A DNA stretch of 64,000 nt from Eubacteriales bacterium (lineage in GTDB: Bacteria > Bacillota > Clostridia > Oscillospirales > CAG-382): contig JAZOTA010000081.1 of assembly GCA_045657425.1 (NCBI GenBank), positions 3,504 through 67,503 of the forward strand, given 5' to 3'. Positions 23,920 to 52,732 of the stretch are shown piece by piece. The translations under genes and the position numbers were made by a program. Below the pieces are notes generated by a model. It saw only the letters and a list, made by a program, of their open reading frames with translations. It was not told the DNA's origin and did not search any database. Position 1 is the first letter of the stretch. The number at the start of each line of letters is the position of its first letter.

Positions 23920-26900
23920 ATGATTAAAAGAGCGCTTGCTACGGTTTTGATAATTCTTACCGTACTGCCTGCCGTGGTTTTGGCAGGCAGCGTTCTTTTT
24001 GCGCCCTATAACGGCTTTGAAGCGTTTGACAATGCCTGGGAAAGCTCGGTCGACGCCGCTTTGGGCAACGCAAGCCTAACAAGCAAACCGCTTTCCCCTC
24101 TCCCCGACGGCGAAAGATATATCGTTAAATTCAAGGACAGCGTTTCGTTACCGTCAATTGAAAATGCGCTTGAAGCAACCCAATACCGTCAGCTTGCCGA
24201 AAGCGAGCAAAGACTGTTTGCGATAAGCGACAAGAACGGAAAATTCATTGAAATGCACAAAGACCTTATCGAATACCACGAGGAAGACCTTGTGCGTGAA
24301 GCGTTTGCGCTTACCGACGACGCGGCAACTCTGCCGGCCTTCGAGGCAACCGGAATTTACGATGCGTGGGATACGGTAAAGGCGAAAAACGATATTATCG
24401 TTGCCGTTCTTGATACGGGTATAGACCGCACGCATGAGGATTTGCTTGATGCAAGCATTCTCCCCGGATACGATGCGGTAACCAAAACCGCAGGTGTTTA
24501 CGACGATGCTGTCGGCCACGGAACGGGCGTTATCGGACTTATCGCCGCAACGGCGGATAACGGAATCGGTATCGCAGGCGCGGCGCACGGCGTAAAGATT
24601 TTGCCGATCAAGGTTTCGGCAAGCAGTACGACGATTTATTCCTCGGATTTGGTTTCGGCAATACGCTTTGCCGCAAATTCGGGCGCAAAGGTAATCAATA
24701 TGTCGGTCGGTGGACTTTCATATTCCTATGCCGAGCAGGAGGCGGTAAATTATGCCGTTTCAAAGGGATGCATTCTCGTTTCCGCATCGGGTAACGGCGG
24801 CTTGCTCCCCTATGCCGACAAAAAAAGTTACCCTGCCTCCTATGAGGGCGTTATTTCGGTCGCATCCTGCGATGCAAACGGCGAAAGAAGTGCTTTTTCG
24901 CAGTATAACGATATGGTCGATATCGCCGCACCGGGCGAATCGGTTATCATACCCATTTTAGAAAACGGTGTTTCGGCATACCGCACCGATTCGGGAACGA
25001 GTTATTCCTGTGCGCTTGTAAGCGCGATTGCGGCACTTTCGGTTTCTGCCTGCGACGAGGGCGTGCGCTTTAACGGCGATGAATTTATGTCGCTCATTAT
25101 GAACACCTGCAACAAAACCCGTACCGACGAGCTGGGATTCGGCATTATCAACGCAAAGCCGATTGTCGAATCGGCAAATCTGCCGATAATCACGGGCGCT
25201 ATCGACGGAAGCATTTACAACGAAAGCATAAGAGTCGGCTTTAACCGAGGAAGCGCGATGCTCGACGGCGAGGATTTTGAAGACGGCGATGCCATCATCG
25301 CAAACGGCGCTCACGAGCTTAAAATAACCGACGGCGATTATGAAAACACCATTCACTTCCGCTTGGAATACGAGCCGTTTTCCTATGAATTCAAGGAATT
25401 TTCGGATTATGCCTATTTTGAGTTCAACCGAGGAAGCGCATTGCTTGACGGCTTCCCCTATTCGTCGGGCGAAAAGATAACAGCATCGGGCAGACACGAA
25501 TTTGTTATCACCGACGGAACCGAAACCTTCAGAAAAATCATCAACGTTCAATATACCCTGCCCGCTGTTTACGGAGTTGAGGACGGCGGAATTTATAATA
25601 ACCCCATCGAAATCTGCGTTGTCGGCGACGGCAAGGCGATGCTTGACGGAAAACGCTTTTACAATAGGATTGCCGTTGCCGAAAGCGGCGTGCATACCCT
25701 TTCGGTCGAAAGCGGAAACGGTGCGGTCAAAAAGGAATATACCTTTGAGATTGATTTCCCGTTTTCTCAGTTCACACAAACCGATTATGCACAATCGACC
25801 GCGGCGGTCGACGAGGAGAACGGCTATGCCTGCATCTACGGTGATTCGCTTGTCGGAGTACGCATTTACGACCTGAACAACCTTTCGCAATATCTGCATT
25901 TTATGCCGATAGGCCGCGTTTACGCCCATAAATTCACCGAAACCGAGCTGATTCTGGCAGGCGACGACGGAATTACGGTAATTTCACGCGCGGATGCGTT
26001 AAATCCCGAAGCGGCGGTTATCGGCAACTACAGTTTTGACGGAATAACACGTTATGCCTTTGCGGACGAAGCGATTTACTGTTTCGGAAACGAAAGCGTT
26101 TACCTGCTTGATATTGCGCTTTCGGAGCTTACGCATATAGCAAGTATCGGTTTTTCCTGTGAAAATGCAATTTATTCCGACGGCTTAATTTGTCTTACCT
26201 CCGACCAAGACGACAGATCGGTATATATCTTCAACACCGAAAACAATGCTCTTTTGGAATTTACCGTTGAAATCACGATCGATTCTCAACCGATCTATTT
26301 CGGATACGGATACCTTGCAATAGGCAACCGTCTGTTTAACGTTTTGCGCCAGACGGCGGTGCTTGAATTTTGCTCATACAACGTTATCCACATTGAAAAC
26401 GGACTTTTGTACAGCGAAAACGCGATAATCGATATTGCCTCGGGCAACGAGGTGGGCAGATTCCCCTTCCTTGTTTCGGATATCGCTTGGGGTACCGACA
26501 GCATTTACCTTTTCGGTCTTGAGCCGATAACGGCGAAGATTTCGGTCGGCGCCGAGGGCGTTTTTGCATACGGTGCGGCAAAGCCGACAGATATTGCCTT
26601 TTCACAGCCCGAAGCTTCGGACGGCTTCAGACAGACTCTGTTTACCGACGGCAATTCCAATGCGATTTCGGCGGTTGCAGGTCAAACCGACGTTTTTGCC
26701 TTGTTTAAGGATAAATACGCAATCTATTCCTTTGCGCTTGACGTGCTTACCGAAAAAGCACCCGTAACCTTGCGCTTTGAGCCCGAAAAGCTTTATCTTT
26801 CGGGCGGTTACCTTGCAGTTTCCTTTAAAAACGCGCCTTACGTTTATATTGCGCCCGAAAGCGATATTTCTTTGGGCACTTATATTTCGCTGCCCGAAAA

Positions 26901-44291: not shown

Positions 44292-44382
44292 GGAGAAGTC
44301 GCTTAGCTGGTCGAGGGCGCACGACTGGAAATCGTGTAACGGATAAAACCGTTCGAGAGTTCGAATCTCTCCTTCTCCGCCA
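44292..44382 (+). tRNA. tRNA-Ser(GGA)
   Basis: GGAGAAG/CTTCTCC acceptor stem, CACGA-CTGGAAA-TCGTG anticodon arm, long variable arm, GTTCGAATC T-loop, encoded CCA. Confidence 0.96.
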
Positions 44383-44419
44383 AACAAAAACCACCCAATC
44401 GGGTGGTTTTTTGTTTGGC
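44379..44419 (+). terminator. Terminator hairpin after tRNA-Ser
   Basis: GCCAAACAAAAACCACCC-AATC-GGGTGGTTTTTTGTTTGGC. Confidence 0.8.
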
Positions 44420-44425
44420 TTTTGA

Positions 44426-44560
44426 AGAGATTCGAAGGGCGTGAGCCTTACAGTCCGGGGGACTGTAAGGGTAGCCCAGCGGAGCAGACCGCAACGGAAG
44501 AGGCGCGGAGCGCCGTTTGGAGTTGCATGGGGCTGCGGAGGAATCTCTCCTTCTCCGCCA
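44426..44560 (+). repeat. tRNA-linked module A, copy 1: antisense T-arm, shared hairpin, duplicated tRNA 3' end
   Basis: AGAGATTCGAA (44426-44436) is the reverse complement of tRNA 44360-44370; hairpin CCTTACAGTCC-GGG-GGACTGTAAGG at 44446-44470; 44541-44560 is identical to tRNA 44363-44382. Confidence 0.85.
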
Positions 44561-44601
44561 AAAAATACTGCAGAATGTATTCTATTCTGCAGTATTTTTT
44601 T
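44560..44601. terminator. Second terminator-like hairpin after the duplicated CCA
   Basis: AAAAAATACTGCAGAAT/ATTCTGCAGTATTTTTT. Confidence 0.75.
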
Positions 44602-44784
44602 ATCCAAGTCGCAGACTTGGCATATCATCCACCGCAAGGTGGTATATCATCAATAACGGCAAGCCGTTATTGTATATCATCACGCTTCAGCGTGCATTTC
44701 TCTGCGACTTGATGATATACAACACTCCGCGTTGATGATATGCAATGCTCCGCATTGATGATATACAAGGCTTTCGCCTTGATT
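44601..44784. ncRNA. tRNA-linked module B, copy 1: structured TATATCATC / TGATGATAT repeat element
   Basis: Three forward and three reverse-complement 9-10 nt repeats, each followed by a hairpin; covaries with the copy at 52430-52613. Whether it acts as RNA or ssDNA is not established. Confidence 0.65.
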
Positions 44785-44806
44785 TATTTGCAAAATATGG
44801 TATAAT
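44779..44806 (+). promoter_or_regulatory. Outward promoter at the end of module B
   Basis: TTGATT-N16-TATAAT with TGn extension, followed by AAGGAGGAG RBS. Confidence 0.65.
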
Positions 44807-44828
44807 ACCCCCAAGGAGGAGTGATATT

Positions 44829-45176
44829 ATGCCTAAAAACTATTTACTTATATATTCGGAGCAGCTTGCTACCGAAATAGAATTGCTTTGTCAAAATATA
44901 AAAGCTCCTTCAAATACTTTATTCCAAATACGCAAAAGCTCAAGCAGTATTTATGCAAATATTCGTGAAGCGAATTATGGACAGAGTAAGTCCGATATGA
45001 TTTCAAAGTTTGAAATAGCTCTCAAGGAATGTAGCGAAACCGAAGGATGGCTTAAACTGCTGGTTAACACAAACGCCATTGACGAAACAACATTTAATAA
45101 GTACCGAAATCTTTGCGGAAGAATCAGACGGATGTTGATTTCAAGTTGCAAAACCTTGAAGGATAACCTAAAATAA
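44829..45176 (+). CDS. Four-helix-bundle protein (23S rRNA IVP / Avd-like family)
   Basis: QIRKSSSSIYANIREA...S..D...KFEIALKECSET..WL signature; 115 aa from ATG 44829; AT-rich. Confidence 0.88.
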   Translation: MPKNYLLIYSEQLATEIELLCQNIKAPSNTLFQIRKSSSSIYANIREANYGQSKSDMISKFEIALKECSETEGWLKLLVNTNAIDETTFNKYRNLCGRIRRMLISSCKTLKDNLK

Positions 45177-45203: not shown

Positions 45204-45680
45204 ATGACAATTGAACAGGCGATATATTTCAAGGTTTTACTTTCAAACGGATATACGGAAGAAGTGCTTCAATACGTAAATACTTCACTCGATACTCAAA
45301 GCACGTTAAGTGATGTTGTTTTGGAGCTTTCCTATGCAGGAAACGACAGAGAAAAGCTTATCTCGATATTGAGCGAATATCTTATCGAAGTAAAAAATGA
45401 CGAAATCGACTTCGACGGCAAGCTGATCGATATGTTTTTGGCGTTTTTTCGCAGAAAATACAGAGAAGAAAATATGCCGCTCGACGAGCTTGTAACAGTT
45501 ATGCACAGCTGTGCGATGTGCTATTCCAATCTTTATAATGTGTTTGGCAACTCGCTTTGGTATACAATGTATATATTAGATGAATGCTATGAGTTTGGCG
45601 AAAGGACGCATTTCTTACAAATGCTTAACGACTTTTTAGATTATAAAAAACCGATGCGCTTTTCTGATTTTTGTTCTTGA
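45204..45680 (+). CDS. AT-rich hypothetical protein
   Basis: AAGGAGG RBS; acidic, probably helical protein; no family recognised. Confidence 0.7.
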   Translation: MTIEQAIYFKVLLSNGYTEEVLQYVNTSLDTQSTLSDVVLELSYAGNDREKLISILSEYLIEVKNDEIDFDGKLIDMFLAFFRRKYREENMPLDELVTVMHSCAMCYSNLYNVFGNSLWYTMYILDECYEFGERTHFLQMLNDFLDYKKPMRFSDFCS

Positions 45681-47868: not shown

Positions 47869-48079
47869 GCAGACTGAGAGAAATGAGGCTGTTTTTAATG
47901 AAAAGCGAGCGTAGACGTAGAAATCTACGGTAGTCGAGCTTTTCATTAAAACCCTTGAAAATACAATAAAAATTAAAATTCCTTATAAAAATCAAGAGTT
48001 CTTCCGATGTAAACGAAAGAACTCTTTTTTGTTGTTTTTTCTTTCAAGGGTGTAAACAGACCATTTGTCCGCGGTCTGC
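47869..48079. mobile_element. Putative MITE / highly structured non-coding element (~210 bp)
   Basis: Imperfect terminal inverted repeats GCAGACTG...CTGTTT and AAACAG...CGGTCTGC; three internal perfect stems of 10-14 bp. Confidence 0.5.
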
Positions 48080-52162: not shown

Positions 52163-52237
52163 GGCCTGTTAGTCAAGTGGTTAAGACGTCGCCCTCTCAC
52201 GGCGAAGACAGGGGTTCGACTCCCCTACGGGTCACCA
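52163..52237 (+). tRNA. tRNA-Glu(CTC)
   Basis: GGCCTGT/ACGGGTC acceptor stem, TCGCC-CTCTCAC-GGCGA anticodon arm, GTTCGACTC T-loop, encoded CCA. Confidence 0.95.
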
Positions 52238-52238
52238 C

Positions 52239-52277
52239 GAAAAAACAAACCTCACTTTATGTGGGGTTTGTTTTTTT
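52239..52277 (+). terminator. Terminator hairpin after tRNA-Glu
   Basis: GAAAAAACAAACCTCAC-TTTAT-GTGGGGTTTGTTTTTTT. Confidence 0.8.
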
Positions 52278-52289
52278 GTCTTGCAACTT

Positions 52290-52387
52290 GGGAGTCGAAG
52301 GGCGCGTGTTGAATGACAGTCCGGGGGACTGTCAGACCGCGCCACCGCTCCGCCCCGAAGGGCGGGCGACTCCCCTACGGGTCACCA
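52290..52387 (+). repeat. tRNA-linked module A, copy 2
   Basis: GGGAGTCGAA (52290-52299) is the reverse complement of tRNA 52215-52224; hairpin TGACAGTCC-GGG-GGACTGTCA at 52314-52334; 52367-52387 is identical to tRNA 52217-52237. Confidence 0.85.
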
Positions 52388-52430
52388 AAAAAGAAGTAAC
52401 TTTTGTCTACCAAAAGTTACTTCTTTTTTT
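52387..52430. terminator. Second terminator-like hairpin after the duplicated CCA
   Basis: AAAAAAGAAGTAACTTTTG-TCTAC-CAAAAGTTACTTCTTTTTT. Confidence 0.75.
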
Positions 52431-52613
52431 ATCCAAGCCGCAGGCTTGGTATATCATCACCGCGCAAAGCGTGGTGTATATCATCAGCCCTTCGGGCTGT
52501 ATCTCATCACGCTCAGCGTGCATTTTTACCTGCGGCTTGATGATATGCAAAACTTTGTTTTGATGATATGCAATTCCTTCGGAATTGATGATATACAAGG
52601 CTTCGCCTTGATT
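52430..52613. ncRNA. tRNA-linked module B, copy 2
   Basis: Same order of repeats and hairpins as 44601-44784, with different but still paired hairpin sequences. Confidence 0.65.
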
Positions 52614-52636
52614 TGTTTTCAGAAAAGTGATATGAT
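52608..52636 (+). promoter_or_regulatory. Outward promoter at the end of module B copy 2 (no downstream gene)
   Basis: TTGATT-N17-TATGAT with TGn extension. Confidence 0.5.
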
Positions 52637-52706
52637 TAGGTCGATAAATAAGAATTTGGTAACGAGGCGTAAATCAAAAACAACCGCTTACAAAAGCATT
52701 AAACAA

Positions 52707-52732
52707 AAAACAGACGGTTGCCCGTCTGTTTT
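52707..52732. terminator. Bidirectional terminator
   Basis: AAAACAGACGG-TTGC-CCGTCTGTTTT. Confidence 0.75.

Follow-up and report, generated by a model that had tools for sequence, protein, structure and literature searches.

Results

Organization of the two Module B copies

The 64,000-nucleotide (nt) stretch of DNA analyzed in this study, referred to below as the window, comes from contig JAZOTA010000081.1 (positions 3,504 to 67,503) of the Eubacteriales assembly GCA_045657425.1, a genome of 1.9 Mb in 87 contigs that is 80% complete. It carries two copies of Module B, a real, repeated, and highly structured noncoding element; all features of the window copies described here lie on the plus strand, and L, G, and C numbers are our designations for loci, genomes, and contigs. 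Copy 1 is anchored by tRNA-Ser(gga) (44292 to 44382; ARAGORN and Rfam RF00005), which is followed by a small insert, Module A (44383 to 44560), that extends from the tRNA gene to a direct copy of the tRNA 3' end (44541 to 44560; direct repeat D11). As read from the sequence, the left end of the B unit (44560 to 44601) is a long hairpin (T) with an A-run before it and a T-run after it. Then come the first hairpin, H0 (CCAAGTC-GCA-GACTTGG; 44604 to 44620), and a direct block (44621 to 44694) of three words, L1 to L3 (CATATCAT, TATATCAT, and TATATCAT, starting at 44621, 44643, and 44673), with a hairpin after each (H1, 44629 to 44642; H2, 44651 to 44672; H3, 44681 to 44694). A distal segment, TCTGCGACTTG (44701 to 44711), is complementary at 11/11 positions to the 5' arm and loop of H0, with which it covaries as a partner in a putative switch. 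It precedes an inverted block (44712 to 44781) of ATGATATA/G words at 44712, 44735, and 44758, again with a hairpin after each (H4, 44720 to 44734; H5, 44743 to 44757; H6, 44766 to 44781). The end of H6 serves as the -35 box in a promoter-like site with a TG extension, TTGATT-16-TATAAT (44779 to 44806), and the cargo gene (44829 to 45176) encodes a 115-amino-acid (aa) four-helix-bundle protein of family PF05635 (23S_rRNA_IVP; TIGR02436). BLAST break points and sequence reading place the whole copy 1 unit, comprising T, B, the promoter, and the gene, at 44565 to 45168.

Copy 2 (52433 to 52610) has an identical plan and no PF05635 gene. Its anchor gene is tRNA-Glu(ctc) (52163 to 52237; ARAGORN and Rfam), and a Module A copy of the tRNA-Glu 3' end (52367 to 52387) leads into the A-run, hairpin T, and T-run (52387 to 52430). 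H0 (52433 to 52449), the forward words (52450, 52477, and 52500), the distal complement (52529 to 52539), the reverse words (52540, 52563, and 52588), and H6 (52596 to 52610) are followed by a promoter-like site, TTGATT-17-TATGAT, at the end of the copy (52608 to 52636); the unit as a whole extends from 52387 to 52704. In each copy, the order is CCA (from a copied tRNA 3' end), A-run, long hairpin T, T-run, ATCC, and H0; then follow three units of (T/C)ATATCAT plus a C-G-closed hairpin, a short spacer, the 11-nt H0 complement, and three units in which ATGATAT(A/G) is joined to a CAA...TTG hairpin. The last of these hairpins ends in TTGATT, the -35 box in both window copies. The B site is a 185-nt ladder with repeated words. 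Rereading of the sequence located, in both window copies, every part that the original prediction had described from them.

Downstream of the promoter-like site of copy 2 (52637 to 52732) lie ∼70 nt without an open reading frame (ORF) and then a two-way terminator (52707 to 52732); this segment could be a small RNA or an empty cassette. Hairpin T of copy 1 is terminator-like by eye and looks like a two-way terminator; it is not among the terminator-scan listings. The T hairpins of copy 2, C7, C50, L069, L075, L093, L127, and L136 have a common apical motif, TTTGTC-TACC(R)-GACAAA, and since they share it despite different head words, T may have a role beyond termination.

Distribution of Module B

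The host genome has eight Module B copies, one of them split across two contig ends, and the exact two-word pattern has 18 matches in it. The pattern was found in 26 of 101 family genomes (8/15 genera) and in 28 of 301 order genomes (12/30 families), whereas a backwards control pattern gave no match in the host genome or in any family or order genome scanned. Identical hairpin words were found in different families of the order, which points to horizontal spread. The hosts of these cassettes are gut and rumen Clostridia, and the anchors are tRNA genes or copies of tRNA ends. For comparison, we assembled 47 nonidentical B copies from 27 genomes, 46 of which were parsed (L029 was dropped): 30 of these have the 3+3 arrangement, and 16/46 are unequal or reduced, with a range of two to four forward units of word plus mini-hairpin and two to three inverted units.

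The element had no match in the phage collection at blastn sensitivity. At the gathering score, Rfam recognized two tRNAs and nothing else in the whole window, and in a permissive scan of 44380 to 44840 the best hit on Module B was Gut-1, which scored 20.9 bits (gathering score, 50); thus, no known Rfam family matches the element, a point on which the original prediction had asked for a check. Searches of the literature on PF05635 proteins and on repeats downstream of tRNA genes, supplements aside, found no description of the element.

Fixed words and covarying hairpins

Throughout the 47 copies, the 8-nt words TATATCAT and ATGATATA are constant, and the hairpins between them vary by compensatory substitutions. 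The forward words are TATATCATC, CATATCATC, or TATCTCATC in 121/130 cases, and 119/128 reverse words are GATGATATA/G; these repeated words look like the protein-binding units that had been predicted. There are 136 distinct hairpin words, 116 of them fully Watson-Crick, and 811/832 stem positions are paired (left block, 80 distinct words, 67 fully Watson-Crick, 483/497 positions paired; right block, 56, 49, and 328/335, respectively), so that the pairing noted earlier within hairpins of different sequence holds beyond the window.

Formal covariation was assessed in a MAFFT alignment of 25 of the 30 3+3 copies; the omissions were one copy from the host genome, one whose coordinate was faulty, and the copies in which H0 had not been parsed. 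When the local hairpins H0 and H3 to H6 were scored, 94.4% of the cells were paired, compared with 76.9% in shuffled alignments (0/500 shuffles reached the observed value) and 27 to 35% with slid partners, and both sides changed in 15/30 pairs. Pairing of the distal segment with the 5' arm and loop of H0 gave corresponding values of 97.8% and 77.2% (0/500), and both sides changed in 7/11 pairs; most of these cells come from two main lineages, and there were therefore fewer independent events than the cell counts suggest. This pairing exists in five sequence versions, each 11/11 complementary, with the loops GCA, GAAA, GAA, and GGAG, plus the window's own T/A version; the exceptions are four copies with one mismatch and L075, with 6/11 matches, a recombinant in which the H0 of one class is combined with the distal segment of the other. 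The covariation originally seen in two copies, including that of the two mutually exclusive pairings of the first hairpin, therefore extends to the larger set.

The outcome was different for the words themselves. Forward and reverse words were paired at 93.8%, as against 93.7% in shuffled alignments (274/500 reached the observed value), and the common A-to-C change in the forward word meets an unchanged T, uncompensated, in 17/19 cases. A word-word "rod" is favored by energy folding; however, we rejected it on these grounds. Without covariation, the "3+3 complementary repeat scaffold" of the original prediction is a sequence symmetry and not a demonstrated helix, and its numbering does not apply to the uneven or reduced copies; selection for word-word pairing is not supported. 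What survives of the predicted structured RNA or single-stranded DNA with alternative folds is a folded single-strand structure with two covarying pairings; the pairing of forward with reverse words does not. Folded as DNA, either strand was more stable than 200 shuffles (z = -8.0 and -7.6).

The strand bias of the loops and wobbles is opposite in the two halves. GNA and TNC triloops number 18 and 2 in the left block but 0 and 27 in the right block, and top-strand G.T and A.C mismatches number 9 and 1 on the left but 1 and 3 on the right. The G-U versus A-C comparison that had been proposed as an indicator of the functional strand singled out no one strand. The loop polarity implies that each unit, on its own strand, is TATATCAT plus a hairpin with a C-GNA-G loop and that the two blocks are convergent. 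Triloops of the C-GNA-G type, GCGAAGC among them, have unusual stability in DNA. In the other word families of the host genome, the polarity relative to the tRNA is reversed; together, these reversals are not explained by one transcript of fixed direction.

Position behind tRNA ends

In 11/30 copies, a tRNA gene detected by ARAGORN, with 10 different anticodons represented, ends 33 to 44 nt before H0; in other copies, a copy of a tRNA 3' end stands at that place. The left boundary of the unit is always CCA followed by the A-run. Homology among the eight copies of the host genome starts at this CCA and comprises the A-run, T, and B only, plus ∼70 nt in four of them. Hairpin T is flanked by an A-run before it and a T-run after it in every copy, and Module B lies behind this terminator hairpin in all copies and, in 14/43, ahead of a promoter that starts at its last hairpin. 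At L016 and L061, the gene starts ∼20 nt past B.

Comparison with relatives revealed gain and loss of whole units. L037 and L040 are without the 44565-to-45168 unit, and G386 is without 52387 to 52704, where it has a plain 43-nt terminator segment instead. At L038 (94% identical), tRNA-Ser is followed directly by T, B, and the gene. Most B copies carry cargo other than PF05635, or none; of 10 ORFs tested after B, 8 have no Pfam family, 1 is a GNAT protein, and 1 is an RHS fragment. No recombinase gene was found in or beside the cassettes in the window, and the three PF00589 matches of the genome lie elsewhere, either on different contigs or within a separate 5.3-kb island; no replication or partition genes were found near the window copies.

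The four-helix-bundle gene of copy 1 is followed by a gene for a 158-aa protein (45204 to 45680) that has no Pfam family. This gene has its own promoter in L037 and L040; here, the B unit replaced that promoter, and the gene would be read from the cassette promoter.

The PF05635 protein and its words

The 115-aa cargo protein matches PF05635 (E = 4e-19) and TIGR02436 (E = 2.5e-21); its nearest solved relative is PDB 2rld (E = 6e-16), a five-chain entry, and PADLOC gave only a weak partial match (E = 0.004). PF05635/TIGR02436 proteins are widespread among bacteria. Members of PF05635 are known from 23S rRNA intervening sequences, and Avd is an accessory factor of diversity-generating retroelements; apart from Avd, we know of no function for PF05635/TIGR02436 proteins. 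The family is called "functionally uncharacterized" in a passage of one preprint (bioRxiv 10.1101/2024.02.27.582315), and portions of the published literature place PF05635 proteins inside rRNA genes, cas loci, and restriction operons.

All five PF05635 genes of the host genome follow a hairpin T and a word-and-hairpin head. The words are those of Module B in one case, GTGAAATA/TATTTCAC in three, and ATTCAT/ATGAAT in one; the four heads with other words stand after tRNA genes or Module A (C62:5660-5870, minus strand; C7:8224-8480, minus strand; C50:340-580; C35:5441-5640). PF05635 is carried by 77/101 family genomes. Ladder heads precede 30 of the 53 genes for which the upstream sequence sufficed, direct word arrays precede 15, and the other 8 have little; a tRNA lies at most 420 nt upstream in 24 of the 53. 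Words and protein clades go together: the B-type clade (xKNYLLIYSEQLAT) has B words at 12/12 loci, whereas other clades have ATATCAC, AATGATG, ACTTCAC, AGCTAAA, GTGAAAT, and so on. The exact B pattern is present in 11/14 genomes with a B-type protein (at least 60% identity) and in 15 of the other 87, for a Fisher P value of ∼1e-5 that treats related genomes as independent, which they are not. A complement of at least 9 nt between the first-hairpin region and the center is present in 14/29 heads of several word families, compared with 27/756 cross-family controls.

Among the related heads, that of C35 has a distal complement whose pairing partner is the terminator hairpin, in its 5' arm. L099 (G032:C16) has three tandem ladder heads before one PF05635 gene, and at L100 (G084:C13), 17 units of AATATCATT plus a mini-hairpin, all direct, separate the promoter from the start codon.

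Discussion

In this study, we have compared Module B across copies and found a ladder whose shape is conserved, with fixed words, a covarying closure, a constant place behind tRNA ends, gain and loss of units, and a recurrent partnership with PF05635. Our favored, though still tentative, reading is that Module B is the protein-binding head of small mobile cassettes that sit behind tRNA CCA ends and that it most likely acts on DNA. With regard to the choice between RNA and DNA, we lean towards DNA, since B follows a terminator, precedes a promoter in 14/43 copies, and has opposite loop polarity in its halves. It can be envisioned that an oligomeric protein binds the invariant words, most likely the PF05635/TIGR02436 (Avd-like) protein that is the signature cargo of these cassettes, and that this four-helix-bundle protein would also act in trans on heads elsewhere in the genome. 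The hairpins would then be sequence-free structural spacers that fold when the DNA is extruded or single stranded; the left block would use the top strand for this and the right block the bottom strand, and the H0/distal exchange would open or close the direct block. Binding might determine how active the adjacent outward promoter is, or it might assemble a complex that moves or keeps the cassette.

A more specific proposal, which we consider rather doubtful, is that the ladder is the recognition platform of a PF05635 oligomer and that the two together form an unrecognized class of miniature elements, with clade-specific 7- to 9-nt words and H0/distal pairing as an on/off switch. Such elements would insert at stable-RNA genes, at the 3' end, and bring a terminator with them, and heads without the protein would be nonautonomous members served in trans. 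If true, this would provide the first function for the PF05635 family. The conserved candidate nucleic acid partner, with its clade-specific words, shape-conserved hairpins, and covarying two-state closure, makes what PF05635 proteins bind and do approachable with gel shifts and probing. The element also points to very small accessory cassettes as a layer behind the tRNA genes of gut and rumen Clostridia, one that annotation currently overlooks and that breaks assemblies at contig ends.

Several observations weigh against a PF05635-bound DNA head. The PF05635 gene is the first downstream ORF in only 6/47 B copies; G052 (58% complete) and G089 (89% complete) have B heads and no PF05635 match; and carriage at the Pfam level is alike in B-positive (22/26, a count that includes four B-positive genomes not among the listed no-match genomes) and B-negative (55/75) genomes. 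The correspondence between words and protein clades could be plain coinheritance of neighbors, and four-helix-bundle proteins of this family are not known to bind specific sequences. A promoter at the last hairpin is present in only the 14 copies noted above, the head is downstream of a promoter in 5/33 cases of other word families, and the lack of promoter room at L016 and L061 means that B may be transcribed there. Finally, the mixed H0/distal pair of L075 implies that the switch is dispensable for persistence.

One alternative is that Module B is a folded single-strand recombination site, like integron attC or CTX-phage attP, that a recombinase encoded elsewhere uses in cis at tRNA CCA ends, with the four-helix-bundle gene as a frequent cargo or accessory factor. 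Units without a gene, made up of T, B, and a short tail, occur and have spread, accounting for 4/8 copies in the host genome; L010 has a 257-nt unit with a tRNA-Glu 3' end on both sides, and the units of L009 and L018 have 15-nt direct repeats on their flanks. The constant CCA/A-run boundary, hairpins that keep shape rather than sequence, as in attC, and a mostly ORFan-like cargo are also consistent with such a site. However, a downstream repeat of the upstream 15-mer (0.2- to 4-kb flank, at most 2 mismatches) was present in only 3/38 copies, namely L009, L010, and L018; the recombinase matches of the genome are all away from the window cassettes; Module A units occur in the same arrays without B words; and the word differences between protein clades are left unexplained. 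We regard this alternative as unlikely, though still a serious rival.

As in integrons, the cassettes are small, mostly single-gene, ORFan-rich, and arranged in tandem. attC recombines as a folded bottom strand with extrahelical bases; B has in common with it a site conserved in fold rather than sequence and strand polarity. Unlike attC, which is one imperfect palindrome at the 3' end of a promoterless cassette, next to an integron integrase and attI, B is a 185-nt ladder of repeated words at the 5' end, right after a tRNA and a terminator; there is no adjacent integron integrase, the cassettes have their own terminator and often a promoter, and the anchor is the tRNA 3' end. Integrase-less tRNA islets (cis-mobilizable elements and tandem accretion) likewise have tRNA 3'-end copies that separate array units, but here the same head stands directly behind tRNAs of 10 anticodons, and repeat-flanked units were seen in 3/38 copies. 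Islands that target tRNA genes have one cognate tRNA per integrase or element family, and a single tRNA-specific integrase does not explain the same head at 10 or more different tRNAs.

An equally serious, though likewise unlikely, rival is that Module B is a structured RNA, whether a tRNA read-through trailer, an antisense small RNA that ends at hairpin T, or a leader, with a riboswitch-like H0/distal exchange or an RNase III-type word-word stem as in 23S rRNA intervening sequences. Two exclusive, covarying pairings are typical of RNA switches, the A-run and T-run around hairpin T would terminate transcription from both sides in every copy, the stems tolerate G.T wobbles, and, besides L016 and L061, the related heads of L097, L100, and L103 lie between promoter and start codon. 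Against this explanation, B on the plus strand follows a terminator and, in the copies with a promoter at the last hairpin, precedes that promoter; the polarity of loops and wobbles is opposite in the two halves and reversed again in the other word families; the loops are C-G-closed GNA triloops rather than UNCG or GNRA tetraloops in a consistent strand; the words do not covary; and no Rfam family matches.

ORF-bearing 23S rRNA intervening sequences carry the PF05635 (S23p) gene, and they resemble the B cassettes in this cargo, in insertion at a stable-RNA gene, in inverted word arrays, and in gain and loss between relatives. They differ in that intervening sequences lie in an rRNA helix, whereas B lies 33 to 44 nt behind tRNA 3' ends in a window without rRNA; their arms flank the gene and pair, whereas both word arrays of B are upstream of the gene and, as 274/500 shuffles indicate, do not covary; and the B unit brings its own terminator and, in most copies, other cargo or none.

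We give still less credence to a selfish or neutral modular intergenic repeat, like pneumococcal BOX elements or enterobacterial bacterial interspersed mosaic elements/repetitive extragenic palindromes (BIME/REP), that has no function of its own and spreads by recombination between copies. Module B is multicopy and patchily distributed, its copies are frequently at contig ends, unit numbers vary (16/46 copies depart from 3+3), and hairpin words are shuffled among slots, with L075 as a recombinant. Strict compensation over more than 130 hairpin words together with a three-way match of arm, arm, and distal segment requires selection or a dedicated mechanism, however, and the position and orientation behind tRNA ends are constant. 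BOX and BIME/REP are likewise modular, multicopy, intergenic hairpin repeats with variable numbers of middle modules, but in REP elements the palindrome sequence and a 5' tetranucleotide are conserved at high copy number, the reverse of the free hairpin sequences (136 distinct words) and fixed linkers of B; B is also fixed behind tRNA genes and has ∼8 copies per genome rather than hundreds. REP-associated tyrosine transposases (PMC2817692) were considered and rejected as a source: the host genome has a Y1 (PF01797) transposase, but such genes occur in 10/26 B-positive and 31/75 B-negative genomes and show no link to B.

An invertible switch in which the direct block flips at the H0 5' arm and the distal segment deserves almost no credence: these covarying 11-nt inverted repeats do flank the block, and a flip would align all words one way, as in the 17-unit direct array of L100, but the left block is flipped in 0/47 copies (all of which were found via their unchanged right half), and the local H0 hairpin is unneeded at an inversion site.

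Other known systems were also compared with Module B. Plasmid iteron and centromere-like arrays have short identical words, direct and inverted, next to a promoter, with plausible binding of an oligomeric small protein; in B, by contrast, the spacers are covarying hairpins, no replication or partition gene is nearby, and the element is chromosomal and multicopy. Miniature inverted-repeat transposable elements have terminal inverted repeats, a target-site duplication, and a cognate transposase; the ends of B read as similar to each other when inverted (ATC-hairpin-GTATATCATC), the CCA/A-run boundary showed no duplication, and no transposase was identified. CRISPR arrays have identical 25- to 40-nt repeats, unique nonpalindromic spacers, and cas genes, whereas the words of B are 8 to 9 nt long, its spacers are palindromic, and its orientation reverses in midarray. 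Because at least one defining test for each of attC sites, REP/BIME elements, intervening sequences, tRNA islands, and invertons gave a negative result for Module B, we have filed it as a new kind of element; it matches none that has been described.

Three further candidates were tried and rejected. Reverse transcription primed by tRNA, as a source of the CCA/A-run junction, is unsupported: the host genome (80% complete) gave no PF00078 match. In an H0/distal attenuator, the distal partner would lie downstream of the terminator on the plus strand and would pair with the far arm on the minus strand, and neither arrangement is standard. The box C/D likeness of UGAUGA lacks a D box partner, and snoRNA matches were far below threshold.

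Associated modules and neighboring elements

Module A lies outside Module B, yet it is part of the same array. It is absent from L038, whereas L037 has one copy, L040 has two, and L039 has three, between genes. In the window, it occupies 44383 to 44560, where it holds a terminator of its own and the tRNA T-arm in inverted copy, and 52238 to 52387; further sites are at G000 C45:109457-109745 and at ∼8300 to 8600 of C7 (reverse complement). It is a 150- to 290-nt insert between a tRNA and a direct copy of the tRNA 3' part. Within it, a terminator of its own comes first; next, the same tRNA segment recurs in inverted form (the T-arm in the Ser and Glu cases, the anticodon arm in the tRNA-Met case at C45) and is followed by a conserved core, TCGAAGGGCG ... 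CAGTCCGGGGGACTG. The inverted and direct copies could pair, mimicking a double-stranded tRNA gene segment.

A mini-insertion of ∼45 nt that starts with GGGGTCCCC or GGGGTTCCCC is found in the loops of conserved hairpins at three unrelated places: the H0 loop of L016, a Module A hairpin at L138 (G386:C34, ∼48010 to 48055), and the upstream region of L092. Its placement suggests a tiny element with hairpin loops as its target.

In gene-less units, B is followed by a conserved tail, "Module C" (..AGTTCGAATTCATACG.. and then ..AAAATATCTTTTT..), found at G000 C20:3500-3560, C52, C56, and C74:27585-27640 and at L014, L021, L066, and L070. At L021, another B unit, with its A-run and T, begins immediately after Module C to form a tandem array, and at L009 a 25-nt junction, ATCTTTTTCGGCACCTCTWCTCA, is repeated between three different cassettes. 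The 5.3-kb island mentioned above (G000 C74:22045-27400) lies between tRNA-Ser(cga) and a copy of its 3' end and contains a partial tyrosine recombinase gene (24570 to 24932, minus strand); since that 3'-end copy precedes a B unit, this is an ordinary tRNA island inserted upstream of the ladder.

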